Source of the DNA: a virus
Lineage: Duplodnaviria > Heunggongvirae > Uroviricota > Caudoviricetes
Length of the DNA stretch: 19,368 nucleotides
Virus record (IMG/VR): IMGVR_UViG_2737471862_000006
Reading direction: 5' to 3' (one strand)
Shown: one piece after another, positions 1 through 17,816 of the stretch
How the letters are laid out: each line of letters opens with the position of its first letter
Position numbering within the stretch: position 1 is the first letter of the stretch
Position numbers and translations under genes: made by a program
Notes under the pieces: generated by a model
Told to the model about the DNA's origin: nothing
The model's input: the letters and a program-made list of their open reading frames with translations, nothing else
The model's database searches: none

Positions 1-170
1 ATGAGTAACAACTCTTACATGAGATGTATTCATATCTAAATATTCTTTCAATTATAACCACCTTGCTGCAATATTATGATTATACTGTATAAAATTTAAC
101 TCCTCTTAGATCTTACTTCACTGTTCCTTATGAAACAATCATCAAAATGAATCATATTGTAGTTAAGATT

Positions 171-635
171 TTACTTTAAACACTGCTCGGTTATGTATTG
201 CTGAGCACCTTCAAGTTGGGCCTGCATCATTACCAGTCGTTCCCGGAGGGTGAAATAATCCCGTTCAGCGGTGTCTGCCAGTCGGGGGGAGGCTGCATTA
301 TCCACGCCGGAGGCGGTGGTGGCTTCACGCACTGACTGACAGACTGCTTTGATGTGCAACCGACGACGACCAGCGGCAACATCATCACGCAGAGCATCAT
401 TTTCAGCTTTCGCATCAGCTAACTCCTTCGTGTATTTTGCATCGAGCGCAGCAACATCACGCTGACGCATCTGCATGTCAGTAATTGCCGCGTTCGCCAG
501 CTTCAGTTCTCTGGCATTTTTGTCGCGCTGGGCTTTGTAGGTAATGGCGTTATCACGGTAATGATTAACAGCCCATGACAGGCAGACGATGATGCAGATA
601 ACCAGAGCGGAGATAATCGCGGTTACTCTGTTCAT
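171..635 (-). CDS. Rz-type i-spanin (inner-membrane spanin), 154 aa
   Basis: Near-identical by recollection to lambda Rz (N-terminal TM segment, coiled-coil body). ATG at 635..633 overlaps the endolysin TGA (ATGA). The track ORF extends to a GTG at 647; the ATG at 635 is preferred. Confidence 0.9.
230..415 (-). CDS. Rz1-type o-spanin lipoprotein, 61 aa, embedded in Rz in the +1 frame
   Basis: Signal peptide with lipobox VVGC, proline-rich PPPPP and PPP tracts; wholly nested inside the Rz gene in another frame, as in lambda Rz/Rz1. Confidence 0.85.
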
Positions 636-1129
636 TGCTGACCCCACAAACAGATTTCACGCTCAATCTCACGACGTGTCATGAGACCTTTCCATTGCTT
701 ACCGCCAGCATATGTCCAGCGACGTAGCTGATCACATGCGCCTTTGATATCGCCCTGGTTTATTTTGCGAAGAAGCGTCGATGTTCTGAAATTGCCAGCA
801 CCCACGTTGTAAACGAATGAGTAAAGAGCGCCGCGCGTTGTTTCCGGTATATCGACTTTGATGTACGGGTTAATTTGTCTGGCGACAGTGGCAAGGTCTT
901 TATTCAAGAGTGTTTTGCATTCTGCTTTGGTATACGTTTTACCGAGCATGATGTCTTTTCCTGTATGCCCGTGACATACAGTCCATACACCAACAATATC
1001 TTTGTATGGTATGTAGCTGACACCTTCCAGACCATCGTTACCACTTGGGCCAGTGATTAACACTGATGCTATAGCAATTGCTCCGCCACCAATAGCAGCA
1101 GCAACGACTTTTCGTAATGATGGAGGCAT
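632..1129 (-). CDS. SAR endolysin, T4-lysozyme family (phage 21 R-like), 165 aa
   Basis: N-terminal Gly/Ala-rich weakly hydrophobic signal-arrest-release segment ([18 protein letters not shown]) followed by an E...D...T catalytic triad region ([24 protein letters not shown]). Start ATG overlaps the holin stop. Confidence 0.9.
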
Positions 1130-1344
1130 TATTCACCTCTCGCAGCCTTGCGCTTATCTTCTTTAATCTTGAAATAAAGGTTTGTCAGGTACGTCAGCAG
1201 GCCAAATACCAGACTACCCAGCACACCGATTGCAGCCCACTGTGACGGAGTTACTCTATCGAGCAACTGTAAAAACCAGTAGCCAGCACTGCCTGCGGAG
1301 GTGCCGTAGGCAATGCCTGTTGAAATTTTGTCCATGGATTTCAT
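1129..1344 (-). CDS. Class II holin / pinholin (S21-like), dual-start MKSMDK
   Basis: Two TM segments, charged C-terminus ([13 protein letters not shown]); dual-start motif M-K-S-M typical of holin/antiholin pairs; SD GGAGGTG 5 nt upstream of the ATG at 1344. The track ORF extends to 1401, probably an artefactual upstream start. Confidence 0.85.
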
Positions 1345-1595
1345 AGCCTCACCTCCGCACGGAACGGATGGCATAGTTATTATGTGTAGGCTTTCAGACA
1401 CATCAATCAGAGCCTTAATTGATATATATGCTGGAGACGATGCAATATAAAAAGCTCGCCGTAGCGAGCTAATGAAATGTATTTCTCTGATATTATGTTT
1501 ATTTGTATTAGCTCAGACTTGACATCACAGGTTTCGTATATAGAACATCATCAAATCTGTCAGTTTGCTATGAATGAGATATAGTAATTGAAGAG

Positions 1596-1991
1596 CTAAC
1601 CTCGCATGTCAAAGCCAGATTTCTGAAAATCTCTGTAGACTTCCGGATTGTTGAAGGCCGGAAATTTGGCTTTATGAGCTGCGGACTTTATCGCTTCGCA
1701 ATAGGCTTTATCACCGTTACTGGTAGATATTTTTAACGCCGTGCCATCCTGAGAGAATTCCATATGCAACCTGCATTTTTTCCCTTTCCAGTTATGCGGC
1801 TCATCAAGTTTGGCATTAATTGCAGCTCTGATTCCCCGCGCTTGCGCCCCCCATTCATCCTGATCATCCCAGCGTCCTGAACTGCAACTACCTGTAGCAG
1901 TAGTTTTGTGGCAATCTGAAGGGTGTAAAGGTGTGCATCCCGCAACAAAACCGACCCAAAAAGTCAACATAACGATTTTCTTTAATCCCAC
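1596..1991 (-). CDS. Lipoprotein with TolA C-terminal-domain (domain III)-like tail, 131 aa
   Basis: GTG start with SD GGAG; signal peptide plus lipobox FVAGC; C-terminal GKKCRLHMEFSQDGTALKI...YCEAIKSAA...FPAFNNPEVYRDFQKSGFDM follows the TolA domain III pattern (GK.C.L....G.LL.I...LC.AA....P.PP...VY..F....DF). Confidence 0.7.
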   Translation of the reverse strand: MGLKKIVMLTFWVGFVAGCTPLHPSDCHKTTATGSCSSGRWDDQDEWGAQARGIRAAINAKLDEPHNWKGKKCRLHMEFSQDGTALKISTSNGDKAYCEAIKSAAHKAKFPAFNNPEVYRDFQKSGFDMRG

Positions 1992-2141
1992 TTCTTGCTC
2001 CTCAATCCATTAAAATCTCAGCAATAGTAGTTGTTACGTCCGCCACTGGCTCAGAGCTGACTATCCGCTAAATTTAGCTCAGTGCCGTAGCTGTGTCAGA
2101 ACAAACCTAAGCCGAAACCGTTTATTACAAAACAATAAATA

Positions 2142-2570
2142 TCAGGGTTTAAAATCCAGCACCCCATTTTGAAATACTTTATATACTTCCGGCGAAGGGG
2201 GGGCAGGTATATCAGCATTCTTTATCGCATTCATCGCTTCACGACATAAATCGAGGTCTCCACTTTCTCTTTTAACCTCCAGTAGAAGGCCATTCGGGGC
2301 CATATGCATTCTCAGTGTACACTCTTTTCCTGAATACTTACTCGCATCCCCGAACTGTTTTTCGATGGCGCTCTTGATTTGATGGGCATACAGACGGATA
2401 TCCTCACTAACATCAGAAGTACGTTCAGATGAACTCACATACTGTGTCTCTATTGCTTTATCGGAGTAATATGATGTACGGTCATGATAATTTGTCGATA
2501 CAGCATCAGTGCACCCGATAATAATCCCACTAATAATCAACGTAAGAATTGATGCGCTACGAAAACCCAT
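2142..2570 (-). CDS. Lipoprotein with TolA C-terminal-domain (domain III)-like tail, 142 aa; paralogue of 1596..1991
   Basis: ATG with SD GAGG; lipobox IIGC; C-terminal ~80 aa (HQIKSAIEKQFGDASKYSGKECTLRMHMAPNGLLLEVK...LCREAMNAIKNADIPAPPSPEVYKVFQNGVLDFKP) closely resembles the C-terminus of E. coli TolA as I recall it (...GQIKSAIESKFYDASSYAGKTCTLRIKLAPDGMLLDIK...PKPPSQAVYEVFKNAPLDFKP). Confidence 0.7.
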   Translation of the reverse strand: MGFRSASILTLIISGIIIGCTDAVSTNYHDRTSYYSDKAIETQYVSSSERTSDVSEDIRLYAHQIKSAIEKQFGDASKYSGKECTLRMHMAPNGLLLEVKRESGDLDLCREAMNAIKNADIPAPPSPEVYKVFQNGVLDFKP

Positions 2571-2733
2571 TTTTCCTCACATATGTCATATAGTAAAGGA
2601 TTATATATACCGTTGTTTTGGACGCTCAAACAGCGAATCAGATCAAATAAAACGCACATTTGTTAACATTTACACAAAGTCTGCGTGGGATATTCTGAAA
2701 GAATATCCATAATGTGGAGAGAATCTATTGAAG

Positions 2734-2838
2734 TGCATGGTGCCGGGTGCCTCCCGGTGAACAAAATGTTCGTGATACCTGTCGGCGACAGAAAAGGTTA
2801 ATGGTATCACCCCACCGCACAGGGGGATTCACCATGCA
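2734..2838. other. Compact ~105-nt cluster of nested inverted repeats (candidate structured RNA or DNA site)
   Basis: Outer 9-bp perfect stem TGCATGGTG (2734-2742) / CACCATGCA (2830-2838) enclosing hairpins CCGGG-tgcct-CCCGG (2743-2757), GAACA-aaa-TGTTC (2759-2771), GTGATACC...GGTATCAC (2772-2779 / 2803-2810) and CCCC...GGGG (2810-2813 / 2822-2825). Confidence 0.35.
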
Positions 2839-3158
2839 GGAGTTTTCTTAGCAAACTCACTGCGCGCCCGGCAACTCCCAACCACATAAAATGCGGAGTT
2901 TGTGGCATTTATGCATATAACTCGCAGGAATTATCTTAAAAAACTGATGTCGATCCGGATTAAAAAGAAGCAGGTCATCATCAGATGACTGGAAAAAAGG
3001 AAAACAAAAAATACTCATCATACAGTTTTGATTGCAGGGATGAGCCTGCTATGCACAATATGCAGAATATAAGCAAGATAAAAATATGCAGGCATATTAT
3101 TTCGGATTTTGTTATTAACACAACCTTTTTAATAATCATTTGGCATACAATAAACCAG

Positions 3159-3190
3159 CCCAAAAAGAACCGCCTAAACAGGCGGTTGGT
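3159..3190 (-). terminator. Candidate Rho-independent terminator (minus strand)
   Basis: Minus-strand reading AACCGCC-tgtttag-GGCGGTT followed by CTTTTTGG. Confidence 0.45.
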
Positions 3191-3431
3191 CAATACAAAG
3201 GATGCTTCGTCTTTATTATAGTAATCTGAGGCGTCGGGTGTCTTGTATCAGACAACATATTGTCCCGCTAAACAGCGAATTACAAACCACCCTGCAATGA
3301 TCTCTCATCTCATTTTATATGAGTTGACGACATCAGGATAACGCATCATCAGCCCCTGCCAAGAAATATCAAAACTCCCGCCAGCAATGTGTTATCACAA
3401 TATTGTAAAAAAAACACAGCACCGAAACTAT

Positions 3432-3469
3432 AACTGGTCTCTGTTATAATTTGGAGCAGAAAGACCAGT
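3432..3469 (+). promoter_or_regulatory. Extended -10 promoter element (TGtTATAAT at 3442-3450) inside a 9-bp inverted repeat AACTGGTCT / AGACCAGTT
   Basis: Perfect TATAAT with TG at -14/-15 on the plus strand; flanking perfect inverted repeat (3432-3440 / 3461-3469) suggests a protein-binding site or RNA hairpin; lies downstream of the Q-like gene where a late promoter / qut region is expected. Confidence 0.35.
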
Positions 3470-3504
3470 TGCCCAACTAGCAGCATTCTCCCCTGCTTTC
3501 CTGA

Positions 3505-3537
3505 CGTAAAAAAACCGCATTAAGCGGTTTTTTTACG
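3505..3537. terminator. Bidirectional intrinsic terminator-like perfect palindrome (14-bp arms, 5-nt loop)
   Basis: CGTAAAAAAACCGC-attaa-GCGGTTTTTTTACG; GC stem flanked by an A-tract and T-tract, functional in either orientation; ~80 nt downstream of the Q-like stop. Confidence 0.6.
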
Positions 3538-3614
3538 ATGTCCATGTCTGCAATCCGCCTCGCGATACAGCTTTGCGAAGCATAGCAAAATTGAAGCAGT
3601 TTATACGTAAGAAA

Positions 3615-4157
3615 TCAAGCCATTTTCTCAGCAAATGATTCACGCATGGGAATATATAGGGCATACTCAGCAACAGCTAACCAATTAGCAATCCGTTTTT
3701 CGCATGTGCTAAAACACCACTCTGGGTGTGCATCATTTAGCAATTCAGCCATTTTGCGCTTAGTCATCCCCCGCCCTTCATAGCGTTGCCGGAGAATGCA
3801 AATCAATCCTGGATGCTCTGCCAGCACCTCACTTATGACTCGATCAATACATAACGCCTCTGCATCAGTACAATGCGCCAGCCAGCTCTTTTGCTTGCCG
3901 TTGATCATCTCTCGCAAAAACGCTTCCAGCTCAGCTTTCTCTATTCCCGCTTTTTTCATTCTGCGCAGGGCTTCATTAATGGCTGTTTTCGTCAGTTTTT
4001 TGGATGCCAACAACTGATTGAACATATTCCCTGACCTGCCACCGCCAATATACGACCAGCGCCCCCACATACGTAGTTTTCCCTGAATCCAGACACTTTC
4101 CAGCGTGGTGAGGCGAAGGTGTTCTCCGCTTTTTCCTGTATTCGTTGGGTAAATCAT
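3615..4157 (-). CDS. Putative late-gene antiterminator (Q-like), 180 aa
   Basis: Call rests on position (last gene before a terminator/promoter-like leader and the lysis cassette, after ybcO-like nin genes) and basic, Cys-containing composition; ATGA overlap with the upstream gene. No sequence match recalled to lambda Q itself. Confidence 0.5.
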   Translation of the reverse strand: MIYPTNTGKSGEHLRLTTLESVWIQGKLRMWGRWSYIGGGRSGNMFNQLLASKKLTKTAINEALRRMKKAGIEKAELEAFLREMINGKQKSWLAHCTDAEALCIDRVISEVLAEHPGLICILRQRYEGRGMTKRKMAELLNDAHPEWCFSTCEKRIANWLAVAEYALYIPMRESFAEKMA

Positions 4158-4444
4158 AAATGACCTTTCTTTCTCCAGATTTCTTGTGTGCGAAAAACCC
4201 CTTCAGCATGCATCAGGCGCAATTCTTCTTTGGTGTAATCGCTGGTTTTTACCCGCCCGTCGATTAGATCGTGGCATGAGCTACAGGCTATCGCCGCCTG
4301 CATATCATGTGGTTTTGTCGCTGTTCCGCACGTCCCCGCCAGCCTGTAATGCGCCAGCACAGAGGTTTCGGGATTGTGATTGCAGTAGCCAGGGATTCTG
4401 ATCTGGCACATCTGGCCTTTAGCCGCTTTACGTAAATTCACCAT
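4154..4444 (-). CDS. YbcO-like (DUF1364) putative nuclease, 96 aa
   Basis: 96-aa Cys/His-rich protein (C..C...H...C..C.H) matching in size and pattern the DLP12 nin-region protein YbcO; start overlaps the upstream stop. Confidence 0.65.
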   Translation of the reverse strand: MVNLRKAAKGQMCQIRIPGYCNHNPETSVLAHYRLAGTCGTATKPHDMQAAIACSSCHDLIDGRVKTSDYTKEELRLMHAEGVFRTQEIWRKKGHL

Positions 4445-5043
4445 TACGCAAACTCCAGTAGTTGTGCGGCCACATTTTCAACTTCCTCCTGAGAGGAGAA
4501 TTTACGGAACAGAATCCAGTTCCACAGCACATTCAGTACAGATTTATAAACCTGCTGAAACTCGACTTCGTCCATATTCGCAAAAGCGATGGATTTTGCC
4601 CGACGCCCACGGCTACCGTCCGGATAAATATGCTCGGTGTAAAATCCGGCCTGAATGGTTACCCACTCGCGGAAAGCCTCAAACGACTTTAGCAACGCCG
4701 TATCCCGGGTTCTACGAGTCGCAACGGTGTTAAGGTATTGCTCTGCGGCATCACTCAGGGCTGGCGTGTGTTCCCGACCAACTGATTCGCACAGGTAATC
4801 AACGAAACCAGACAGCAGTTCTCGTTCGCGAGGCGTGATCGCCCCACCGACCGGAGTCCAGTAATCGAATCCCAGTTGCAGGAGTTTGAAAAAACGCTTG
4901 TGGAATGCGTAGTTACGCACACGCTTAAAGTCTGCGTGTATCCACTCACCTATTTTGATTTGATGCAGAAAATCGCAACTCTCCGGCGTCGCCGGGAGAA
5001 GTAAACCAGAAGAGGTTTGTTTGACCAGTTGTATATGCGCCAT
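4444..5043 (-). CDS. DUF1367-like lambdoid nin-region protein, 199 aa
   Basis: Resembles the conserved prophage protein family that commonly precedes DUF1364/YbcO in lambdoid nin regions; translationally coupled to the ybcO-like gene. Confidence 0.55.
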   Translation of the reverse strand: MAHIQLVKQTSSGLLLPATPESCDFLHQIKIGEWIHADFKRVRNYAFHKRFFKLLQLGFDYWTPVGGAITPRERELLSGFVDYLCESVGREHTPALSDAAEQYLNTVATRRTRDTALLKSFEAFREWVTIQAGFYTEHIYPDGSRGRRAKSIAFANMDEVEFQQVYKSVLNVLWNWILFRKFSSQEEVENVAAQLLEFA

Positions 5044-5323
5044 TTCTCAATCTCTCGATGGCGCAGCGCAGCAGATGCCAGTTGTTCAGGCTGACGAATA
5101 AAGTATAAATAAACTGGCTATGGTGTAAAGCCCCACATAGCATGAACAAACACTACATATCAAATAGCTGGTACAAGGATAGAAATACGACACTTATTAT
5201 TAAAAACGATTAGATAAATTACATTTTAATGTTATGCAAAAGTTCTTTTTTATCATAACATTTCAATAAAAGCATTACAGATGCAATCATCCCGTCATCA
5301 TCAATTATTTAAGGTGGTTAAAC

Positions 5324-5410
5324 ATGGAAAATAACAAGTTCGCACATCTCGCTCCTTTTTTATCCGTAATCCTTTTCGCTTGTTGTTTTATATGGGCATT
5401 ATTTTTATAA
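5324..5410 (+). CDS. Candidate small hydrophobic peptide, 28 aa (MENNKFAHLAPFLSVILFACCFIWALFL)
   Basis: Strong SD AAGGTGG 6 nt upstream of the ATG; single predicted TM helix; lies in the AT-rich island. Coding status unproven. Confidence 0.3.
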   Translation: MENNKFAHLAPFLSVILFACCFIWALFL

Positions 5411-5801
5411 AGTAGCCACATGATAAGTTGCTGGAATCATATTTCCCACTCAAGTCATTAACATTTGATAAGATATATCTAAAAGGACGCCTTTACATTA
5501 TTTATGCGTATATAATTTATTTATATACACAGTAAAGGTATCCTGGGAAAATATTTATCGTTAAAAAATACATCATAAATAATTAAGCTGAAATTTCAGA
5601 ACATAACTAATACACACAATAAGGTTCAGTAACAGTAATCTATGTGGACTACATCGAGATTTTTTGATTAAACTTTAATAACTTATTCCTAACACACAGA
5701 ATGCATAAACTAAAAGTAAAACAAATAGTTATACGAAAAACAACCATATTTATTCTATCTTCTCCTCTAATCAACATATCAATTATGTGTTTCATAACAG
5801 C

Positions 5802-5841
5802 TTGACATAACCCTCCAAAAGATGCATTTTTAATGCATGTT
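5802..5841 (+). promoter_or_regulatory. Candidate promoter (-35 TTGACA at 5802-5807) with NsrR-type operator (5819-5841)
   Basis: AAGATGCATTT-T-TAATGCATGTT matches the 11-1-11 NsrR inverted-repeat consensus (AAGATGCATTT-N-AAATGCATCTT) at 21 of 23 positions and overlaps the predicted -10 region, immediately upstream of the yeaR-like RBS. Confidence 0.55.
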
Positions 5842-5856
5842 TTGGAGGAGGTGGTT

Positions 5857-6195
5857 ATGACACACAAGAGAATTCCTAAAGATTGGGTAATCAAACGCTC
5901 AACTCCGTTCTTCACAAAAGAGAACGTACCTTCAGCGTTATTAACACATCATAATACAGCAGCAGGTGTTTTTGGGCAGTTGTGCGTAATGGAAGGCACT
6001 GTAACATATTATGGTTTTACTGATGAGAATGCTACTGAACCGGAGATAAAAGTAGTCATTAATGCTGGCGCTTTTGCAACAAGCCCACCACAATACTGGC
6101 ACCGTGTTGAACTAAGCGATGATGCTCAGTTTAATATTAACTTTTGGGTCGCTCCAGACTTTTCGGGCGAAAAAGTCTATAGCACCAAAAAATAG
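5857..6195 (+). CDS. YeaR-like DUF1971 protein, 112 aa
   Basis: ATG at 5857 preceded by SD GGAGGAGGTGG; resembles E. coli YeaR as recalled (RSTPFF, MEGTVTYYGF..E..AEPE, FNINFWVAP). The track ORF begins 24 nt upstream at a weaker start. Confidence 0.6.
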   Translation: MTHKRIPKDWVIKRSTPFFTKENVPSALLTHHNTAAGVFGQLCVMEGTVTYYGFTDENATEPEIKVVINAGAFATSPPQYWHRVELSDDAQFNINFWVAPDFSGEKVYSTKK

Positions 6196-6224
6196 ATGAT
6201 CATATTAAAAATGCTTTAACAGTC

Positions 6225-6261
6225 AGACCCGGCAGGGCTATCCCCGACGGGTCTCATTTTT
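6225..6261 (+). terminator. Rho-independent terminator downstream of the yeaR-like gene
   Basis: Stem AGACCCG (6225-6231) / CGGGTCT (6248-6254) with an inner GGG/CCC extension, followed by CATTTTTG. Confidence 0.6.
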
Positions 6262-6772
6262 GTAAATATATTGGTTCTACATTGACAGGAGACTTCAACC
6301 ATAAGAAGTAATCTGAATACTTGAGCAATAAATTTACTTAAGATTAATGAGCGCACCTTGCCGGACAAAGATAAACCAAGGTAACACCTTTTTTCTAGCC
6401 AGTATGTAATCAATCAGAAAGCCGCTCCATAAGAACAACAGCAAGACAATAAATTGCCATTACAGCCGCAATAGCCAGCGCACATTTGAGAACCAGCACG
6501 ACAACCCCCTGTATTAGACGCACACCAGTCCTGATAAATATGAGGCTGTCTCGTCAGTGATTCAATACAACTATTGGGTATAGTTTCTGTGATTTTATTC
6601 TGTAGAAATGGAACACAACAACCAGTCACCACCAGCACTTCCTTAAATGCTCTAAGTCAGAAACAAGCCAACATTTTAGTCCGCTTTGAGCGAAGAGCGG
6701 ACATTGCTAACAGCATCCTGTGTGAATCATTACGATCAAATCGATGACTAGATAAGTACAAACCGGAAAAGG

Positions 6773-6793
6773 GGCCTACTGACGAAGTAGGCC
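6773..6793 (-). terminator. Rho-independent terminator of the three-gene operon
   Basis: Minus-strand GGCCTAC-ttcgtca-GTAGGCC followed by CCTTTTCCGGTTT, 16 nt after the operon stop codon. Confidence 0.6.
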
Positions 6794-6810
6794 TGAGTTC
6801 CTTATATATT

Positions 6811-7467
6811 TCACAAAATTCTGAGAGTTTCTAAGATGGATAAAAGTGTTGGAAGCTGACTCTCTCTCACACGGAATCTACCCGTCCTAGATAATTCCGT
6901 TTCAATTCCGTTAACGAAGAAATGTACGGAATCAAAAACGGCCGAACTATTCATGTATTTATTCTGATAAATTTCTTGGAGATTCTTTGAGCTTACTATT
7001 TTTGTCTTTGCTAAAGTAAAAGGATCAACAGAGATATTAGATAGAGACATGGATTTTATCTTGATGTCAAAGCCCTCAGAAAGACCATTTACAATTTTTC
7101 TCAGATCAAATTCTACTGGTCTCAAGCCACTATCTTCACCAAATAGTTTTTGCACCATAGTATAAGGCACTTTCATACTTAATGGAGGATTAGTGGCATA
7201 TAGTATGATTTTTTTCCCTTGTCTGACGCCAAAGTCCACATTTAAGTAAGTTGCTATTTCAACCTCTGAACGCTCGCCATTAGCATATTCTAAGCTTTGC
7301 TTGCTAATGCTTCTCATGGTAAATCTTAGTTTAAGCACTTCAGAGTTATTAATGATTTGAAAACCATATCCTTTATCTTCATCATAGAGGTTGTCATTTA
7401 CTTTATGTAATAACTCACTTTTAGTTATATCCTTTTCTGCTTTATAAATTTTTACCTTTATCATCAT
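6811..7467 (-). CDS. Hypothetical protein, cassette gene C (218 aa from the ATG at 7467)
   Basis: ATG at 7467 overlaps the stop of gene B (ATGA) and is preceded by SD AGGAGG; AT-rich codon usage; no recognisable motifs. The track ORF start at 7494 is a TTG. Confidence 0.6.
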   Translation of the reverse strand: MMIKVKIYKAEKDITKSELLHKVNDNLYDEDKGYGFQIINNSEVLKLRFTMRSISKQSLEYANGERSEVEIATYLNVDFGVRQGKKIILYATNPPLSMKVPYTMVQKLFGEDSGLRPVEFDLRKIVNGLSEGFDIKIKSMSLSNISVDPFTLAKTKIVSSKNLQEIYQNKYMNSSAVFDSVHFFVNGIETELSRTGRFRVRESQLPTLLSILETLRIL

Positions 7468-8711
7468 CCAGCCTCCTGATTCAAAGTCTCGCAAGACATA
7501 GCTTTCGTTACTGGGTATCGCTTGGTATGCTCTTCGATAATAAAGTCATTAATCAAAAATATTTTATCTTCTAATTGTTTCATGACTTGATCAAAGTCTG
7601 CGTCACTGAGTTTTTCTCTCTCTGCGGATGCAGAGTTGCTTTCTTTGTATAACGCTCTGAATTTTATATTTTTCCCAAGATATTTATCATCGAAACTAAG
7701 TTCAAAAGTTATAGTATGATTCTTAACTACTGAGGAAAATGACTTCCATCGAATTAAGCTTCGATAAAACCCATCACTGCACAGTTCCTTAATTTGAGGT
7801 GCGTTCACTAATGATAGGCCATCATACGCGGCATTGTTAATGTTAAAAGTTAGGTTTTCATCATCGTCAGATGCCATTTCCTGATTATTAATGTCATCAT
7901 CATTTTCGTTATCTGTAGAAGGTGAAATCTTGTTTAATAACTCTTGTGTTTCTTCGTTATTATTTCCTTCGAGATTATCTCCATTAATATCCAGAGATGT
8001 TTTTATTCTGCTTACTCTAACCTTTTCAAGACCAGCATATTCAAGTCCTGTTTTTTTATAATTTCCATCAAAATCATAAAGATGAACAGCAAAAATATTC
8101 CTAAGATCTGTATCGACGATACTTGATAAATCTATTTCGTTGACAACTATGTTGTTACAAACTGTTGATGAATATGTATCAATTATTTGCTTGAGAATTT
8201 CTGAAATGCGTGGCGTATAGTTATATCTTACTGAAACATATCCTTTTTTTACTATAAAAACTATACTCCCACTGTACAATTTTTTCTGCTGAAACTTACC
8301 CCTTCTAAAATCAAACTCAGTATAATCAATAGATATATGATAGGTTTGCAAGCCTGAGTAATGATCAATTTTCTCATGCCCTAGCAACTTGGGTCTATTT
8401 TCTTTCACTTTGTTTACAACGTCATAGAGTTTCTCTATATCAAATTCTTCATATATACGTTTTACTGAGAAGACGTCTTGGCTGGGTTTGGTTGCCAGTT
8501 TATCTTGTACTTCTCTGATGTGATTATATGAAAATGGCAGGTCTGATAATTTTTCTATCAATACCTCTTTTGATAAGTTAGATGGGAAAATTATCCCTCT
8601 ATTGAAGGCGATTTTCCTTAATGTAACATCTGTGATTTTTGCACTGTTAGAGTGGAGGGCGGTATAAATGTCACTTTCGTTTGAAAACAACGTAGCTTGA
8701 TATTTATTCAT
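7464..8711 (-). CDS. Hypothetical protein, cassette gene B (415 aa) with acidic low-complexity central region
   Basis: ATG with SD AAGGAG, 10 nt after the stop of gene A; central Asp/Asn/Glu-rich stretch (NNNEETQ...DNENDDDINNQEMASDDDEN); no Walker or other motifs recognised. Confidence 0.6.
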   Translation of the reverse strand: MNKYQATLFSNESDIYTALHSNSAKITDVTLRKIAFNRGIIFPSNLSKEVLIEKLSDLPFSYNHIREVQDKLATKPSQDVFSVKRIYEEFDIEKLYDVVNKVKENRPKLLGHEKIDHYSGLQTYHISIDYTEFDFRRGKFQQKKLYSGSIVFIVKKGYVSVRYNYTPRISEILKQIIDTYSSTVCNNIVVNEIDLSSIVDTDLRNIFAVHLYDFDGNYKKTGLEYAGLEKVRVSRIKTSLDINGDNLEGNNNEETQELLNKISPSTDNENDDDINNQEMASDDDENLTFNINNAAYDGLSLVNAPQIKELCSDGFYRSLIRWKSFSSVVKNHTITFELSFDDKYLGKNIKFRALYKESNSASAEREKLSDADFDQVMKQLEDKIFLINDFIIEEHTKRYPVTKAMSCETLNQEAG

Positions 8712-8721
8712 GTCATACTCC

Positions 8722-9813
8722 TTATGAAAAGTGACATTTTCTATTCACCTGCTTGCTGGCAACCTGGTACTCAAATATAGATAGCTTTTGATTAACAAAA
8801 GGAATGGATACTATTTTTTCCTTTAACGTTTCTATATGAGATTGAGTGAAAGAATATATTCCTATGTAATCATTAATGGCGGATTGCAAATGAATGCTTG
8901 AGTGTGATGAGAACGGAGTTATAACAAATATTTTGTCAAATTGATTGAGTAATTGATAGTTAAATATATACTCTAAAAGAAATATAAAGTGGTTACTGGA
9001 ATCAACCTCTTCCTTCCAGAATATATTCAATATTTTATTTCTTATTCTATCGCCACCATCATTTCTAATATATTCGTGTTCATATGAGTAAAAAATCATC
9101 CCAGATGTTATCATTTCAATTGTGGCTGGAAGGATTTTCCCTTTCGTTGCTATTTTATTATGTTTGTCAGGGTAAAAATATGTACAGTTCTCTATCTCAG
9201 GAATTTTTTGCCATAACATATTTGTTTCTTGTGTTACTTTGTCAGTAATTCCTCTTCTAGTCTCGATGTGTTCTGTAACATCTAGTAAAAATCTGATCAT
9301 AGTTGGGTCAAAAACGGCAATCACAGAGTTCTCTGGAAAATCATAACTTGCTGTGGCTGCTCCATTTAATTTCTCAATTAAATCAGAGTCATATTTATTG
9401 TCATGATTATATATAAAAAGTAGGCCGTTAACTTGATATTTCTCATTTGTGCTGTCAACAAATAGACGCCGCCACTCAGGACTTCTTGGCGCGCAAGCTA
9501 CCTGTTGTGATAAACTTCGTACAGTGTTCAATATTGATTTTGTACCGTCAAGCGTGCTGGCACAATAAGATTTTAAATCTGTTTGTATATACTGAGTTAT
9601 ATCTGAATAAGGATCTTTATATTTGAAGACTACATCCGTAGGATGAGTTTTTTTTGGGTTTTCAGATAAAAGTTGTTTAGCGTTTAGATGAGATCTCAAA
9701 CAACAGTCCCAACTTATATCCGTTGTATTTTGGGTTTTCCAGCCTAACTCATCAAAAATTCTACTGGAAATGATACCTGCAATCTCATCAATATTCTTAG
9801 TTTCGCCGCCCAC
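8722..9813 (-). CDS. Hypothetical protein, cassette gene A (363 aa, GTG start)
   Basis: GTG start preceded by SD GGAGGA; possible but weak PD-(D/E)xK-like pattern near the N-terminus (HPTDVVF ... IQTDLKSY); no confident family assignment. Confidence 0.55.
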   Translation of the reverse strand: MGGETKNIDEIAGIISSRIFDELGWKTQNTTDISWDCCLRSHLNAKQLLSENPKKTHPTDVVFKYKDPYSDITQYIQTDLKSYCASTLDGTKSILNTVRSLSQQVACAPRSPEWRRLFVDSTNEKYQVNGLLFIYNHDNKYDSDLIEKLNGAATASYDFPENSVIAVFDPTMIRFLLDVTEHIETRRGITDKVTQETNMLWQKIPEIENCTYFYPDKHNKIATKGKILPATIEMITSGMIFYSYEHEYIRNDGGDRIRNKILNIFWKEEVDSSNHFIFLLEYIFNYQLLNQFDKIFVITPFSSHSSIHLQSAINDYIGIYSFTQSHIETLKEKIVSIPFVNQKLSIFEYQVASKQVNRKCHFS

Positions 9814-9885
9814 GCTTCCTCCATAGTTCGTTGTTTTATCTAGTGAAGATCTGATTCATGGTTTTCCAAGCCCATGCGCAAAACA

Positions 9886-9914
9886 ATTAATCAAGTAAGA
9901 ATAATCTTAATCAA
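9886..9914 (-). promoter_or_regulatory. Candidate sigma70 promoter for the three-gene operon
   Basis: Minus-strand TTGATT (9914-9909), 17-nt spacer, ATTAAT (9891-9886); about 70 nt upstream of the gene A start. Confidence 0.4.
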
Positions 9915-10110
9915 TTTAATCTTTTTTATTTGAATCATCAAGAGCCCCATTACTGATAGGCATCAGTTGGTGGTATCTCTGCTCAAGCTTCAGTAAAATC
10001 TGGTTTGCTACTTCCGCTCCTGGCACAAAGCGGACAACCACGCTAGCTCTCCCCTGTGCCAGAAAAATGTCAATTTACATATGAACTAATGCTCTTTGAT
10101 CTAGTAACGT

Positions 10111-10527
10111 CTATAAATACCGAAGATTTCCTTGATAAAATGCCAGTACACGTTTCATAACTTCACTCTTCCGGCACTCGCGACAGATTATGTTCTGACG
10201 CCTGTCATAGCGGCGTATTTCTCCGTCTGGTAATGACCAGATAAGGTCAGGATCAACCACAACCGTTTTTTTCACCTTTGCCCTGGATAGTTTTTTGCGG
10301 GCGTTTTTCCAATCCTTACGAGCCTGTTCAGACGGGAATAACCCATAGCCAGAGTTGTATACATCGCCACTGGCAACCAACTCTCTGGCAAGAATGCTCA
10401 TCAGATATCTTGTCGCACCTGTCTTGGCCTCCAGTTGCCTTAACGTCTCGCGCCCACTCTGGCGTACCAACTCAACAACCTGCTCCTTAATTTTTTCACG
10501 CTCTTCCTGTGTAAAAACTTTTGCCAT
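10111..10527 (-). CDS. Hypothetical prophage early-region protein, 138 aa
   Basis: ATG at 10527 with SD GGAGG (the track start at 10542 is a TTG); basic protein with a C-terminal CxxC pair; function unknown, possibly a remnant of the early or replication module. Confidence 0.45.
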   Translation of the reverse strand: MAKVFTQEEREKIKEQVVELVRQSGRETLRQLEAKTGATRYLMSILARELVASGDVYNSGYGLFPSEQARKDWKNARKKLSRAKVKKTVVVDPDLIWSLPDGEIRRYDRRQNIICRECRKSEVMKRVLAFYQGNLRYL

Positions 10528-10542
10528 AAGCGCCTCCGGCAA

Positions 10543-10872
10543 TCACTTTTCCGACACAATACGACTGGAGGAATCGACAATCTGTCGGACAATATCCCGG
10601 TGCTTGTTCAGCTCCCGCAGCGCGGCGCAGACTCGCTCCCACTTCTGGACATGATTTTTCGCCCGACGCAGTTCGCGGTTTGCCATATGCAGCGATGGTA
10701 AAACTAGGTCATCCGCTTGCGTTTCAGTAAACGATGGCAGCGACTGCACAATGTCCGCCACAGTTTCTGTTTTAATATCTTCCTGTGTTGCCGCTTCCTG
10801 TACCCATGCCTGCCCTTTTTCGGCTGCCAGGGCTAACAACACTGACTCGATGTGCTCATGCTTGATTTTCAT
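10543..10872 (-). CDS. YdaT-like (CII-analogue) prophage regulator, 109 aa
   Basis: Immediately downstream of, and ATGA-coupled to, the Cro-like gene, as in the Rac ydaS-ydaT pair; helical C-terminus. Assignment is by position and general resemblance. Confidence 0.45.
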   Translation of the reverse strand: MKIKHEHIESVLLALAAEKGQAWVQEAATQEDIKTETVADIVQSLPSFTETQADDLVLPSLHMANRELRRAKNHVQKWERVCAALRELNKHRDIVRQIVDSSSRIVSEK

Positions 10873-11123
10873 GAATCAACTCCCATCAGCTTTTTCGTAG
10901 TAGTTTTATTTCTGCCAATAGTTAAAATTACATCAGCAGAAAATAATCCGTTTGATGCATGAGCGATTTTTTCAGCGTAATTTGTTTCGCCGGTATATTC
11001 TGTGCGAGGCAATTTTCCGTTATCCATCCATTTGTAGATTGCTCTTTGGCTGACACCACAAACGTCGGCCACAACAGAAACGCGAACAGTTTTGATTACA
11101 TCTTCAAGTGTTTTCTGGTTCAT
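10869..11123 (-). CDS. YdaS-like Cro-type HTH regulator, 84 aa from the ATG at 11123
   Basis: Helix-turn-helix VADVCGVSQRAIYKWMDNGKLP; divergent from the repressor gene; SD GAGGGTG upstream of the ATG at 11123. The track ORF start at 11195 is probably not used. Confidence 0.65.
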   Translation of the reverse strand: MNQKTLEDVIKTVRVSVVADVCGVSQRAIYKWMDNGKLPRTEYTGETNYAEKIAHASNGLFSADVILTIGRNKTTTKKLMGVDS

Positions 11124-11139
11124 ATCACCCTCACAATGT

Positions 11140-11179
11140 GAACTTTGAGTACATGCTATAACAGAACTGACAGTACATT
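11140..11179. repeat. Operator-like direct repeats GAACT-N3-AGTACAT (two copies) in the divergent immunity intergenic region
   Basis: GAACTTTGAGTACATG (11140-11155) and GAACTGACAGTACATT (11164-11179), 24 bp apart, between the ydaS-like and racR-like starts. Confidence 0.4.
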
Positions 11180-11202
11180 CAAGAGCGAATATCATTGAAC
11201 TT

Positions 11203-11622
11203 ATGGTTCATGAAGATAAAGCGCGTAAAGAGTTCGCCAGTAGGCTTGCGCTAGCCTGTGAAAACGCTGGTTATGAACAACATGGAAGGCAGGCAGAAAT
11301 TGCCCGTCGAATGAAATTAACACCAAAAGCGGTTAGCAAATGGTTTAATGGCGAAACAATTCCTCGCCGAGAGAAATTAAGGGAATTAGCAACACTCATT
11401 GGAACAACACCAACCTATCTTTTGGGAGAGGATACAGAAGAAAGTGGACAGGTACGTTTCTATCAGGAGTTAAATCCAAGACAAAAAATCATCATTGACC
11501 TTCTGGACGAGCTCCCTGACAGTGAGACAGATGAACTTTTAAAAACTCTTGAGGAGAAAAAACAGAAGTACAATGCAATTTACGAAGAGCTAGCACGAAA
11601 GAAAAAACAAAAAGCCTCTTAA
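11203..11622 (+). CDS. racR: RacR-like XRE-family prophage repressor, 139 aa
   Basis: HTH QAEIARRMKLTPKAVSKWFNGETIP; divergent from the Cro-like gene; flanked by ydaG/ydaF/sieB/kilR as in Rac. Confidence 0.7.
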   Translation: MVHEDKARKEFASRLALACENAGYEQHGRQAEIARRMKLTPKAVSKWFNGETIPRREKLRELATLIGTTPTYLLGEDTEESGQVRFYQELNPRQKIIIDLLDELPDSETDELLKTLEEKKQKYNAIYEELARKKKQKAS

Positions 11623-11697
11623 ACCAGCATAAATCCGGTAGCGTCCCCCTCCGGGTTTGTGCTTCACTTTATCCCATCTCATTTTTTTACACACAAA

Positions 11698-11739
11698 ATG
11701 TACTTAAAGTACTTTACATCAATGAACACAAAGTACATT
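11698..11739. repeat. Second cluster of GTACAT-type operator-like motifs
   Basis: ATGTACTTAAAGTACTTTACAT (near-palindromic) plus GAACACAAAGTACATT, related to the repeats at 11140-11179. Confidence 0.35.
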
Positions 11740-11912
11740 ATATACCTACCAACCCACCCCGCCCCACAGAACGCAGGGCAATACTTCGAGTTACCAGGCA
11801 GTGGTCAGGGGTTAAGTAGCCAGCCCGAGGCGTATGAACATGACGGCAGGGTTCAGATTTTGCAGTGCAGCAGGTTTCAGTTCCGCCACCCGGCGTTAAG
11901 GGGAGAGATAAG

Positions 11913-12047
11913 ATGGTGCATTACGAAGTAGTTCAGTATTTGATGGATTGTTGCGGTATCACTTACAACCAGGCTGTGCAGGCTTTACGCAGCAACGACT
12001 GGGATCTCTGGCAGGCAGAAGTCGCTATACACAGCAACAAGATGTGA
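11913..12047 (+). CDS. ydaG: YdaG-like small protein, 44 aa
   Basis: MVHYEVVQYLMDCCGITYNQAVQALRSNDWDLWQAEVAIHSNKM; SD AAGGGGAG; size and position match Rac ydaG. Confidence 0.65.
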   Translation: MVHYEVVQYLMDCCGITYNQAVQALRSNDWDLWQAEVAIHSNKM

Positions 12048-12057
12048 GATTCGCAAA

Positions 12058-12213
12058 ATGCAAAAAATCGACCTCGGCAACAACGAATCCCTGGTGTGCG
12101 GCGTGTTCCCCAACCAGGATGGAACGTTCACTGCCATGACGTATACCAAAAGCAAAACATTTAAAACCGAAACTGGTGCGCGCCGATGGTTGGAGAAGCA
12201 CACAGTAAGCTAA
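12058..12213 (+). CDS. ydaF: YdaF-like small protein, 51 aa
   Basis: Hand-translated MQKIDLGNNESLVCGVFPNQDGTFTAMTYTKSKTFKTETGARRWLEKHTVS; not in the ORF track (below 60 aa); position matches Rac ydaF. Confidence 0.6.
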   Translation: MQKIDLGNNESLVCGVFPNQDGTFTAMTYTKSKTFKTETGARRWLEKHTVS

Positions 12214-12698
12214 CGATTAAAACGTCTACTCCTGCTGTTCCAGAATAACTTCATAAAATGGGAGTATTTTTCGGTGACGAGATAATAAGAACAGTTTGCG
12301 CTATCACTCTGATGTTGAATGATGCCCTTCCGTTCTAATTTTTTCATAACCGGGTTACGGCAAGGAGAAGTGATAATAAGATTTCCTGTTTTAAGGAAAT
12401 CTTTAAATACAGCGATTTCTTTCTCAGATAAACGAAGCAATACTCGTTGCTCTGGTAGTAATGAATAATGCTTTTGAATATGTGCTCGCAATCTTGAGAA
12501 GGAAATGGCGACCACGAAAGAAAAGGCAAAAACGATAATCTGAAAGAGCCAAGGTATTTCAGTATAAGCATTGAATGCGACAGTAAACTCTTTCGGTATC
12601 AGCCAGAGAGTGAGACCAAAAATGATAATCGTATACATAAGTATTTCGAGTGGCTCGTTAGCAAAAAGTTTCAACAATGGAGTAAATACATCCAACAT
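12210..12698 (-). CDS. sieB: Superinfection exclusion protein B (SieB), 162 aa
   Basis: Begins MLDVFTPLLKLFANEPLEILMY with hydrophobic TM segments; 162 aa from the ATG at 12698, matching Rac SieB; convergent with ydaF. The track ORF extends upstream to 12821. Confidence 0.8.
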   Translation of the reverse strand: MLDVFTPLLKLFANEPLEILMYTIIIFGLTLWLIPKEFTVAFNAYTEIPWLFQIIVFAFSFVVAISFSRLRAHIQKHYSLLPEQRVLLRLSEKEIAVFKDFLKTGNLIITSPCRNPVMKKLERKGIIQHQSDSANCSYYLVTEKYSHFMKLFWNSRSRRFNR

Positions 12699-13139
12699 AT
12701 CAATAACTCTCAACTGTAAGGGTATTGAAATGTTAACACAAGCTCTCGCTGTAGGGGTATAGCCGAGACCACCGAAGCCCGGAGGTGGTGAAATAAAACC
12801 GGGCACAACACGAAGGCGCATTTCCGATATCCATAAAGAGTCGGTCTTGTCTGTTAAATTTAAATGGTGGGAGTGCGCCTCCGGTTGTAAATAACGACAT
12901 TGCTGTGTGTAGTCCTGGCGGCATCAGTTTTTTTCTTGAAGTTCGGCTGATGTCCGCCCTTTTTAAAGTGAATTTTGTGATGCGGTGAATGCGGCTAAGC
13001 GCACGTGGCACAGTTAAAAGTCATGTTAGTCCTTATTGGTTTGGGTGGGAAAGCCGACTGTAATTGTTAACTGGTTGCAGTCACCTGGAGGCACCAGGCA
13101 CCGCATCAACAAAGTTCATTTGTAAAAATGGAGATAATT

Positions 13140-13361
13140 ATGATTGCACATCACTTCGGAACTGATGAAATACCACGTCAGTGTGTGACTCCTGGCGATT
13201 ATGTTCTTCATGAAGGCCGGACATATATTGCCTCGGCAAACAATATTAAAAAGCGAAAACTATATATTCGTAACCTGACCACAAAAACATGCATTACTGA
13301 CCGCATGATTAAAGTCTTCCTCGGTCGTGATGGTTTACCTGTAAAGGCGGAGTCATGGTGA
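13140..13361 (+). CDS. kilR: Killing protein KilR (FtsZ inhibitor), 73 aa
   Basis: [49 protein letters not shown]... matches Rac KilR; SD GGAG. Confidence 0.85.
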
Positions 13362-13531
13362 TGACTAAGAAAATAAAATGTGCTTACCACCTTTGCAAAA
13401 AAGACGTTGAAGAAAGCAAAGCTATTGAAAGAATGCTTCACTTCATGCACGGGATTTTATCAAAAGACGAACCGAGAAAATATTGCAGTGAAGCTTGTGC
13501 CGAAAAAGACCAGATGGCACATGAACTTTAA
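13361..13531 (+). CDS. ydaE: YdaE-like zinc-binding protein, 56 aa
   Basis: Hand-translated [56 protein letters not shown]; start overlaps the kilR stop; not in the ORF track. Confidence 0.7.
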   Translation: MTKKIKCAYHLCKKDVEESKAIERMLHFMHGILSKDEPRKYCSEACAEKDQMAHEL

Positions 13532-13605
13532 TTAATTGACTATTCGAAACTGAATTTATGCCAGAAATGGCAGGTATTCGCTCAACCTTAATTAAGGAGA
13601 AAAAC

Positions 13606-13881
13606 ATGATTACCAATTATGAAGCCACTGTTGTAACTACCGATGACATTGTTCACGAGGTGAATCTGGAAGGAAAGCGCATTGGCTACGTAATTAAAAC
13701 AGAAAATAAAGAAACCCCATTCACTGTGGTTGATATCGATGGTCCATCAGGCAACGTAAAAACACTTGATGAAGGTGTCAAAAAAATGTGCCTGGTGCAT
13801 ATCGGAAAGAATCTGCCCGCAGAAAAAAAAGCCGAATTTCTGGCAACTCTAATTGCAATGAAATTAAAAGGTGAAATCTGA
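13606..13881 (+). CDS. racC: RacC, 91 aa
   Basis: MITNYEATVVTTDDIVHEVNLEGKRIGYVIKTENKETPF...; SD AAGGAG; the track ORF begins upstream at 13558. Confidence 0.85.
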   Translation: MITNYEATVVTTDDIVHEVNLEGKRIGYVIKTENKETPFTVVDIDGPSGNVKTLDEGVKKMCLVHIGKNLPAEKKAEFLATLIAMKLKGEI

Positions 13882-13982
13882 AAGAAATAGCCTGCGTATG
13901 GCGCAGGCTATGAACAGTGTGTATCCGGCAAGATCATTCACTGAACAAAACGAATTTTAATCTGAGTTGAGGTTAAAAAACA

Positions 13983-17385: not shown

Positions 17386-17440
17386 TTCAGCCTGGCGGTG
17401 TAATGCACCGCCAACTTGAAATATTTTTATGAGAAAAATT

Positions 17441-17635: not shown

Positions 17636-17816
17636 AATTACCGCCACTATTGAAAAGGAAGGTGGCACTCCTACTAACTGGACAAGATATTCAAAATCTA
17701 AACTAACGAAATCAGAATGCGAAAAAATGCTCTCAGGTAAAAAAGAAGCAGGCGTTTCCAGAGAGCAGAAAGTAAAACTGATAAATTTTAATTGCGAGAA
17801 ACTTCAGTCCTCGTGA
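17628..17816 (+). CDS. rcbA: RcbA/YdaC-like protein, 62 aa
   Basis: MYKITATIEKEGGTPTNWTRYSKSKLTKSECEKMLSGKK...; ATG overlaps the end of the ralR frame; SD GGAGGTG. Confidence 0.65.
   Translation: MYKITATIEKEGGTPTNWTRYSKSKLTKSECEKMLSGKKEAGVSREQKVKLINFNCEKLQSS

Follow-up and report, generated by a model that had tools for sequence, protein, structure and literature searches.

Two probably independent events in the Rac prophage of Escherichia coli ES5: a private deletion of the replication module and the swap of a repeat-bounded, AT-rich cassette

The stretch of viral DNA considered here (IMG/VR record IMGVR_UViG_2737471862_000006, referred to at its full length of 19,368 bp as the window) is the Rac cryptic prophage of Escherichia coli strain ES5, and is 100% identical to positions 830291–849658 of the ES5 record NZ_CM184343.1. 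It has no replication module, and it carries an AT-rich island between its immunity region and its nin/Q genes. Very probably, these two features go back to two independent events at two sites, namely the deletion of the replication module and the swap of a cassette in a standing cargo slot. An earlier note, made from the letters alone, had proposed a cryptic lambdoid prophage whose early region was replaced by AT-rich cargo, with lysis and recombination functions kept. One part of this interpretation stands; the marker genes identify a cryptic prophage, Rac, that bears cargo, lacks a replication module and keeps its lysis and recombination genes. The other part, the replacement, falls; the junction of a 2,497-bp deletion lies ~690 bp outside the island. 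The observations behind this account are the breakpoints, the gene identities, the fold and motif of a nuclease, the distribution of the cassette and the repeats around it.

The breakpoints were defined by alignment to Rac relatives, a check that the earlier note had suggested. About 120 complete E. coli genomes carry at least 80% of the window; the other genome counts given here refer to a set of 5,426 complete E. coli genomes. The Rac prophage of strain NCTC10444 (L004 in coordinates) is collinear with it at 99.8–99.97% identity, save for two differences. The alignment falls into three blocks: window 1–6727 corresponds to L004 1–6728, window 10013–10803 to L004 8897–9687, and window 10801–19368 to L004 12185–20752. 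At the first difference, 3,285 bp with three genes (window 6728–10012) stand in the place of 2,168 bp with two unrelated genes in L004. At the second, 2,497 bp of L004 (9688–12184) are without counterpart in the window. The features at and near this second site are the following.

10801–10803, no strand: deletion junction with a 3-bp microhomology, TAC, from comparison of the junction sequences with L004.
10543–10872, minus strand: chimeric open reading frame (ORF) of 109 amino acids, the scar of the deletion; YdaT residues 1–24 are in frame with DUF1627 residues ~169–253 (the last ~85 codons).
10111–10527, minus strand: intact DUF977/Ren-like gene of 138 amino acids, the final backbone gene ahead of the cargo slot (PF06163, E = 3.3e-31; phrog_142 ‘Ren-like exclusion protein’, E = 1.3e-46).

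The DNA missing from the window comprises ydaT beyond codon 24, ydaU, ydaV and the first ~168 codons (the 5′ two-thirds) of the DUF1627 gene. In the relative, YdaV matches DnaC (E = 1e-91) and also IstB/DnaA ATPase domains; YdaU matches DUF1376 together with the PHROG ‘primosomal’ and ‘replication initiation O-like’ families. Inside ydaU of L004 (11378–11678), four TTSAACATCWG repeats are found along with a local dip in GC content to 0.38, and this region is a candidate for the Rac origin (oriJ). A lineage-private illegitimate recombination at TAC (10801–10803) would have deleted the 2,497 bp, taking with it the 3′ part of ydaT, all of ydaU and ydaV, and the 5′ portion of the DUF1627 gene; this deletion would explain the absence of the replication module. 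A query of 301 bp across the junction aligns contiguously in just one of the 5,426 genomes, that of ES5 itself. The ‘missing replication module’ is thus best seen as a strain-private deletion scar, and as no new sort of mosaic.

That replication genes are missing, as the earlier note had it, is borne out by annotation, by tblastn and by a search for the iteron-like repeats. When YdaU, YdaV and three lambdoid replisome-organizer proteins were compared with the six-frame translation of the window, the best E value was 0.04. By this search, the window holds neither a helicase loader (YdaV, E of at least 0.48) nor an initiator gene of the O-like, DUF1376 or replisome-organizer type (E of at least 0.04). 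The Prokaryotic Genome Annotation Pipeline (PGAP) places no replication gene between trkG and intR, and the TTSAACATCWG cluster is not in the window, where a single isolated match at chance level occurs. Divergent O/P/DnaC-like proteins, which the earlier note had named as the counter-case, were looked for by profile, fold and tblastn searches with negative results.

Two of the genes next to the junction had been read differently before. The supposed ydaT-like gene at 10543–10872 is a ydaT′::′DUF1627 chimera, of which PGAP labels 10543–10803 a DUF1627 pseudogene without N-terminus. The 138-amino-acid ORF, taken for a possible remnant early gene, is the intact DUF977/Ren-like gene, with a product identical at 138/138 residues to the copy in L004, a replication-proficient Rac. 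The Ren-like gene and the 3′ part of the DUF1627 gene make up 791 bp of intact backbone (10013–10803), which separate the cargo boundary from the deletion junction.

In NCTC10444, the gene order is ydaS-ydaT-ydaU-ydaV-DUF1627-DUF977-[cargo]-DUF1971-DUF1367-YbcO-Q. In this prophage, an intact replication module exists alongside a filled slot, the DUF1971 gene and the AT-rich spacer; the island is therefore not a replacement of the early region. Nor does the island sit in the O/P slot, as had been supposed. It lies in a ren/nin-proximal cargo slot that is filled in replication-proficient relatives too, and by its gene order this slot is the counterpart of the ren/nin boundary in lambda and not of the O/P position. 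Like the window slot, the lambda ren/nin moron slot follows directly on replication genes and a Ren-like gene and precedes nin genes and Q; it differs in that the gene content of the window is unrelated to lambda ren/ninA–I, and in that the window cargo is bounded by specific inverted repeats. The island would then be a regular feature of this Rac lineage, at home in the slot that has the Ren-like DUF977 gene on one side and the nin genes on the other.

The replication module has been lost more than once. Besides ES5, three more genomes carry the window cassette in Rac, namely NCTC9066, LD39-1 and 30COLEC; LD39-1 and 30COLEC have the same 93% coverage of the window. In NCTC9066, the one of these three that was inspected (its Rac is L003 in coordinates), the module was lost via other deletions, which correspond to L004 9397–9661 (with an 11-bp overlap) and 9885–13270. 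At L003 11013–11725, this prophage lacks racR, ydaS, ydaT, ydaU, ydaV and parts of the DUF1627 and DUF977 genes, and it keeps DUF1627 sequence that is missing from the window. Since the deletions differ and this DUF1627 sequence is retained, the losses would be independent of each other and later than the acquisition of the cassette. At the level of sequence, the two sets of deletions show that the early region of Rac has been eroded recurrently. Independent loss of the module in both cassette-bearing Rac lineages fits stepwise domestication, in which recET, lysis and defence genes are kept.

The second event concerns the island itself. Its GC content (5044–10110) is 0.348, compared with 0.449 for positions 1–5043 and 0.451 for 11196–19368, and sliding-window values dip to 0.28–0.34; the AT-rich island that the earlier note had delimited is thus confirmed against flanks of ~0.45. 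Its parts are listed below.

5044–5832, no strand: AT-rich non-coding spacer of the Rac backbone (GC 0.30) between the DUF1367 and DUF1971 genes, 99.4% identical in the NCTC10444 Rac.
5857–6195, plus strand: DUF1971 (TehB N-terminal-like) gene, backbone cargo common to Rac relatives and present in L004 (PF09313, E = 2.6e-26; PGAP).
6678–10035, minus strand: mobile cassette unit of 3,358 bp, GC 0.34, with ends common to the copies in a P2-like prophage and in an island like an integrative and conjugative element (ICE-like).
6679–6702, no strand: left inverted repeat core, GTCCGCTTTGAGCGAAGAGCGGAC, followed by the inner arm ATTGCTAACAGC; found by motif search, the same element as ends the annotated P2-EC46 Z-region repeats.
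6765–6795, minus strand: probable intrinsic terminator, 16 nt past the stop codon of the Hp3-like gene; a GGCCTACT...AGTAGGCC stem with CCTTTTCC after it.
6811–7467, minus strand: Hp3-like gene of 218 amino acids, the third of the cassette (PADLOC Hp3 PDLC03006, E = 4.2e-11; phrog_5850, E = 2.6e-31).
7464–8711, minus strand: Hp2-like gene of 415 amino acids (PADLOC Hp2 PDLC03005, E = 9.6e-11).
8722–9813, minus strand: Hp1-like gene of 363 amino acids, encoding a GAPS4a-type PD-(D/E)XK nuclease (PADLOC Hp1 PDLC03004, E = 5e-41).
10012–10035, no strand: right inverted repeat core, TTCCGCTCCTGGCACAAAGCGGAC, a copy of the left core in inverted orientation; found by motif search.

The 3.36-kb cassette would have been exchanged for a different one in the slot, both being bounded by GTCCGCT-N10-AGCGGAC repeats, and presumably by recombination at or near these repeats. 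Its core (window 6728–10012) occurs in 11 of the 5,426 genomes, and 10 of these copies are at least 99.8% identical. The contexts are Rac (four genomes), Qin-like lambdoid prophages (five, three of them inspected), a P2-like prophage and an ICE-like island. In the inspected Qin-like prophages, the cassette lies between the DUF977 gene and hokD, downstream of intact replication genes. In strain MDK9L1, a 99.9%-identical cassette occupies the Z-region of a P2-like prophage, where it is flanked by the genes for tail-fibre assembly and the tail sheath; the copy in the ICE-like island is ~96.8–96.9% identical and stands beside an integrase fragment and IS3. The P2-like and ICE-like copies share the ends at window 6678/6679–10035. 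Homology to L004, a Rac with the alternative cassette, resumes at 10013.

The alternative cassette of NCTC10444 (L004 6729–8896) encodes a 320-amino-acid protein with a weak match to HEPN/RES N-terminal domains and an RNHLVH motif, and a 333-amino-acid protein with a weak GNAT match, both Pfam matches being below the curated cut-offs. PADLOC returned a single marginal match for this cassette (PglX, E = 0.009). The idea that it might be a GAPS4-like relative of the window cassette was rejected, as there is no BLASTP similarity. The 333-amino-acid gene is also found alone, as a 1,260-nt repeat-bounded unit in a viral contig (L027), and cassettes can therefore be compounded.

Further observations concern individual copies of the slot. 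In the Qin-like prophage of strain KFu019 (L006 5746–7801), the cassette is directly followed by hokD and a Rosmer system (RmrT, E = 1.4e-24; RmrA, E = 1.5e-105), so that in this prophage the ren/nin slot is a small defence island. In 30COLEC (NZ_CP070930.1 2524248–2530386), an IS30-like ISApl1 is inserted in the island, within the stretch of the three-gene cassette. To the left of the cassette, a non-coding stretch of ~280 bp (6395–6677) is ~97% conserved alongside the cassette in Qin-like prophages; it contains only unannotated, spurious-looking Cys-rich ORFs (6414–6638).

The bounding inverted repeats are 46 nt long and 72% complementary, with a 24-nt palindrome-bearing core, GTCCGCT-N10-AGCGGAC. 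This core matches the window twice, compared with 0.00 expected from 200 shuffles. The same repeats flank the alternative cassette of NCTC10444. The left element is found in 1,052 of the 5,426 genomes; it also stands at the edges of an e14-like prophage, and other prophages and a DarT/type I restriction–modification island have it too. Among IMG/VR viral contigs, AT-rich segments of 1,031, 1,260, 1,574 and 3,309 nt lie between inverted pairs, with varied cargo (a GNAT-like protein, a membrane protein and others). For four cargo proteins of other repeat-bounded cassettes, PADLOC gave no significant match, the best being PDC-S14 at E = 0.0075, and these cargoes are therefore not called defence systems.

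The repeats had already been recorded in P2 Z-region GenBank records of the 2002 era. In AJ512680 and AJ512683 (‘Bacteriophage P2-EC46/EC58 proviral Z-region’), a ‘left’ and a ‘right inverted repeat’ are annotated around ‘putative lysogenic conversion’ ORFs, and the inner ends of these annotated repeats are GTCCGCT-N10-AGCGGAC. The Z-region records reportedly stem from work of Nilsson, Karlsson and Haggard-Ljungquist that appeared in 2004 (Mol Biol Evol 21:1). As in the window, the P2 Z-region cassettes (AJ512680, AJ512681, AJ512683) consist of AT-rich ORFs inside the same inverted repeats. The window copy differs in its location, in a lambdoid Rac after a Ren-like gene and not between gene G and the sheath gene FI; likewise, Rac does not conserve the outer repeat arms, which in P2 contexts are AATCTGACA. 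Integron attC sites were considered and rejected, the elements being inverted and their arms misfitting, by inspection, the RYYYAAC/GTTRRRY core consensus. Transposon ends are unsupported, with no target-site duplication visible at the ends in P2 contexts.

A short array of such units may be present elsewhere. Beside intE of the e14-like prophage of TUM1880 (L010 5002–7915), two neighbouring units are marked off by four motif copies; a 314-amino-acid protein with a GIY-YIG-like N-terminal motif is encoded in one, and a 375-amino-acid protein with an RNSVAH (HEPN-like) motif in the other, both motifs being our own readings. The locus resembles a short cassette array; its best PADLOC match (E = 0.0075) is not significant.

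The three cassette genes on the minus strand overlap or abut and are followed by the intrinsic terminator, which folds at −9.2 kcal/mol (z = −3.2; 1 of 200 shuffles as good). They match the PADLOC models Hp1, Hp2 and Hp3 in order, as three adjacent, co-oriented genes. By PADLOC/DefenseFinder naming, we take these models (PDLC03004–6) to be those of the 3HP system (Rst_3HP) of Rousset et al. The trio is conserved across gammaproteobacteria, homologues of Hp1, Hp2 and Hp3 sharing contigs in Yersinia, Morganella, Vibrio and others. The window cassette would thus belong to the 3HP anti-phage family, as a minus-strand operon with its own terminator.

3HP was described as a three-gene system of a P2 hotspot, without predicted domains, that protects against P1 (Rousset et al. 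2022, PMC9122126), and it was still unclassifiable in later surveys. Like the window cassette, it comprises three colinear genes without classical domains in prophage hotspots (PMC9122126). Rst_3HP is mostly prophage-encoded, and the window-type cassette is found in variable hotspots of prophages (the ren/nin slot of Rac and Qin-like prophages, and the P2 Z-region). Compared with the 3HP prototype, the window cassette represents a divergent subfamily, with Hp2 and Hp3 matching at only ~1e-10, and it resides in the lambdoid ren/nin slot and the P2 Z-region, not in the cos-proximal P2 hotspot.

Of the three proteins, Hp1 is the most telling. It has the restriction-endonuclease (PD-(D/E)XK) fold, and precomputed annotation places the PF26115 GAPS4 nuclease domain on the identical Hp1 protein and on 70 homologues. 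In its motif, H57-P58-x-D60 ... D79-x-K81, the residues H57, P58, D60 and K81 are invariant, and D79 is present in at least 90% of homologues. Hp2 has two globular halves, connected by an acidic, disordered linker rich in Asn, Asp and Glu (residues 241–283; predicted local distance difference test score about 28) whose length varies among homologues. The best structural match of its predicted fold is RdgC, a recombination-associated protein that forms a ring on DNA; in sequence, Hp2 has no Pfam match at E ≤ 0.01, and no PDB sequence match, that would place it in the RdgC family. Matches of Hp3 are limited to the Hp3 model and to PHROG families of unknown function. Neither NCBIfam nor the local Pfam copy matched Hp1, Hp2 or Hp3, and PDB sequence searches with the three proteins yielded nothing usable.

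GAPS4 is a two-gene DNase system that is triggered by DNA breaks, with nuclease subunits that dock on a ring of b-subunits (Mahata et al., bioRxiv 10.1101/2025.09.07.674715). The PF26115 domain and an N-terminal H-x-x-D ... x-K motif are common to GAPS4 and the Hp1 homologues. The GAPS4b ring is itself a prediction, and the RdgC-like fold predicted for Hp2 is an indirect parallel to it. On these grounds, Hp1 would be a GAPS4a-type PD-(D/E)XK DNase, Hp2 an RdgC-like and probably ring-forming DNA binder, and Hp3 an accessory subunit. The cassette may then encode a DNA-end-sensing DNase defence complex, related to GAPS4 and equipped with a third subunit, which would probably sense linear or broken DNA during infection, degrade DNA and so protect the population from superinfecting phage. 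The nuclease domain of Hp1 and the predicted fold of Hp2 suggest such a mechanism for 3HP.

One can go a step further, tentatively and with less than even confidence. 3HP may be related to GAPS4 as a system of three components, in which a ring of Hp2 threads DNA ends and licenses Hp1 with Hp3 as a regulator, and, jointly with this, the repeats may be substrates of a dedicated exchange. AT-rich cassettes may in that case be shuttled among P2-like, Rac/Qin lambdoid, e14-like and ICE-like elements by means other than homologous recombination in the flanks. A link of 3HP to GAPS4 is absent from the GAPS4 preprint and from the hotspot papers that were searched.

This picture is complicated by a number of points that weigh against it. 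The deletion junction is known from one assembly, a chromosome-level ‘whole genome shotgun’ record, and the grounds for an origin inside ydaU are the lambda paradigm and short repeats. The Hp2 and Hp3 matches are weak (~1e-10), and that of Hp2 covers the N-terminal residues 8–213 of 415. PADLOC output names no system, the 3HP label being drawn from PADLOC/DefenseFinder naming. PF26115 comes from precomputed annotation only; the local Pfam copy did not match Hp1. Whereas GAPS4 consists of a and b subunits, separate or fused, in a 2:2 heterotetramer, the window operon has three genes, not two, and the Hp1 motif is HPxD...DxK, not HGxD...SxK; judged by gene number and by the canonical DxK in place of SxK, strict membership of GAPS4 fails. 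A defence role for this variant of the cassette is predicted from its family. The single-strand hairpins of the repeats are only modestly stable (z about −1.8 and −1.0), and the bounding element may function in duplex form, as a palindrome that binds protein, and not as a hairpin. For the cassette exchange, neither a recombinase nor a target-site duplication or excised intermediate was identified.

How do other explanations compare? A single replacement, in which incoming AT-rich cargo displaced O/P-type genes and the island marks the replication slot, would account for the proximity of cargo and missing genes, which lie within ~1 kb in the window, and for the fact that all four genomes with the cassette in Rac are without an intact replication module. 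It is nonetheless extremely improbable, given that the backbone between the boundary at 10012/10013 and the junction at 10801–10803 is undisturbed over 791 bp, that the slot is filled in Rac prophages with intact ydaT-U-V and in Qin-like prophages with replication genes, and that the module was lost by different, non-nested deletions in two cassette-bearing Rac lineages. An assembly or sequencing artefact, with the real ES5 prophage keeping its module, is very unlikely. The uniqueness of the junction and the origin of the record as a chromosome derived from whole genome shotgun data speak for it; against it stand a clean in-frame join at a 3-bp microhomology without ambiguous bases, junction flanks that are 99.7–99.97% identical to relatives, the real occurrence of independent deletions of the same module in sister genomes, and the finding that no assembly-collapsing repeats flank the deleted segment.

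As to the cassette, it might be no defence system at all; a nuclease and an RdgC-like protein could form a recombination or repair module of the prophage, or else the genes could act as an addiction module. RdgC as the best structural match of Hp2, the presence of recET in the same prophage, and the lack of significant PADLOC matches (best marginal E = 0.0075) for other repeat-bounded cassettes agree with this. We consider it unlikely; the three proteins match, in corresponding gene order, the three PADLOC models that make up a single defence system, the domain family of Hp1 is named for an experimentally validated anti-phage DNase, and the cassette is AT-rich and patchy (11 of 5,426 genomes), lies in known defence hotspots and, in one prophage, is found by Rosmer (RmrT/RmrA). 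That replication should still be encoded by divergent proteins among the cassette and remnant ORFs has next to no probability, even if the three cassette proteins have no match in the local Pfam copy or NCBIfam: Hp1 has a PD-(D/E)XK nuclease fold and Hp2 a predicted RdgC-like one, Hp3 matches only the Hp3 model and PHROGs of unknown function, the 138-amino-acid ORF is Ren-like and the 109-amino-acid ORF is a fusion scar, and the six frames are without AAA+ or O-like similarity, the iteron cluster being absent as well.

Two independent events, a module deletion and a cassette swap, fit known kinds throughout, namely Rac decay, prophage defence hotspots and P2 Z-region repeats. Modestly new are the recurrent, independent loss of the module, the occurrence of cassettes of the P2 Z-region type in lambdoid ren/nin slots, and the view of 3HP as a combination of a GAPS4a-like Hp1 and an RdgC-like Hp2. 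Repeats around the same cassette in lambdoid prophages and islands extend a 20-year-old observation, and they bear on how defence cassettes swap so fast between unrelated mobile elements.

The assignment of the window to Rac follows from its site and its genes. The insertion site is next to ttcA, and the prophage has intR/xisR and trkG at its opposite ends; in the annotation of the ES5 record, the window runs from the trkG end to intR, with ttcA adjoining. It carries recE-recT, ralR with the RalA small RNA (sRNA), kilR, sieB, racC and immunity genes of the racR/ydaS type, and it is ~99.9% identical to other Rac prophages. From one end, the genes are rzpD-rrrD-essD, a Q-like DUF1133 gene, DUF1364/YbcO and DUF1367, followed by the region discussed above; beyond it come a Cro-like helix-turn-helix (HTH) gene, a racR-like repressor gene, sieB, kilR, racC, recE, recT, ralR, xisR and intR. 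Head and tail genes are absent from the annotation of the window prophage. Compared with fuller relatives such as NCTC10444, or with Rac of the K-12 type, the site and the backbone intR-xisR-ralR/RalA-recT-recE-racC-kilR-sieB-racR-ydaS are the same, at 99.8–99.97% identity; the window differs in that it is without ydaT beyond codon 24, ydaU, ydaV and the 5′ part of the DUF1627 gene, and in that it has a three-gene cassette where most relatives have a two-gene one. The Rac of K-12 retains ydaU and ydaV, and the nin/Q region found in the window has been lost from it. Features outside the island are as follows.

2681–2867, minus strand: STnc100 sRNA match in the intergenic region from Q to the lysis genes (Rfam, 86.6 bits against a gathering score of 47).
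3615–5043, minus strand: nin/Q block with DUF1367, YbcO (DUF1364) and a DUF1133/Q-like antiterminator (Pfam, E = 6e-98, 5e-45 and 2.5e-107).
10869–11123, minus strand: intact ydaS/Cro-like HTH gene (annotation; phrog_35; same protein accession in L004).
11203–11622, plus strand: intact racR-like repressor gene (WP_000233320.1 in the records of both window and L004).
17634–17812, minus strand: RalA antitoxin sRNA, antisense to ralR (Rfam, 225 bits).

The DUF1367, YbcO, DUF1133/Q-like, essD, rrrD and rzpD genes are thus all present, in agreement with the nin/Q and lysis genes that the earlier note had listed. With RalA present antisense to ralR, the type I toxin–antitoxin pair is intact. In the island, the gene that had been called yeaR-like is real, and is assigned instead to DUF1971; the small ORFs in 5649–6638 are without annotation or support. 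The spacer (5044–5832) has no Rfam match. An Rfam scan of the window at gathering scores found no sRNA in the island, matching only RalA and STnc100, both outside it, and a permissive scan of 4950–6850 gave a single chance match to a miRNA. Promoter-like sites are not enriched in 4900–11300 (16 found, 22 expected); the same scan missed the operon terminator and is uninformative.

On the minus strand, the interval from Q to the lysis genes holds a gene for a ‘TolA C-terminal domain-containing protein’ and a tolA-like pseudogene fragment (1596–1970 and 2142–2402). The TolA-like product may be a decoy or exclusion factor that acts on phages or colicins dependent on TolA. The cassette-bounding motif has a third and more degenerate copy (GTCCGCCACTGGCTCAGAGCTGAC) at 2038–2061, between the two gene fragments with TolA C-terminal domains, and the TolA-like gene may be a further repeat-bounded cassette.

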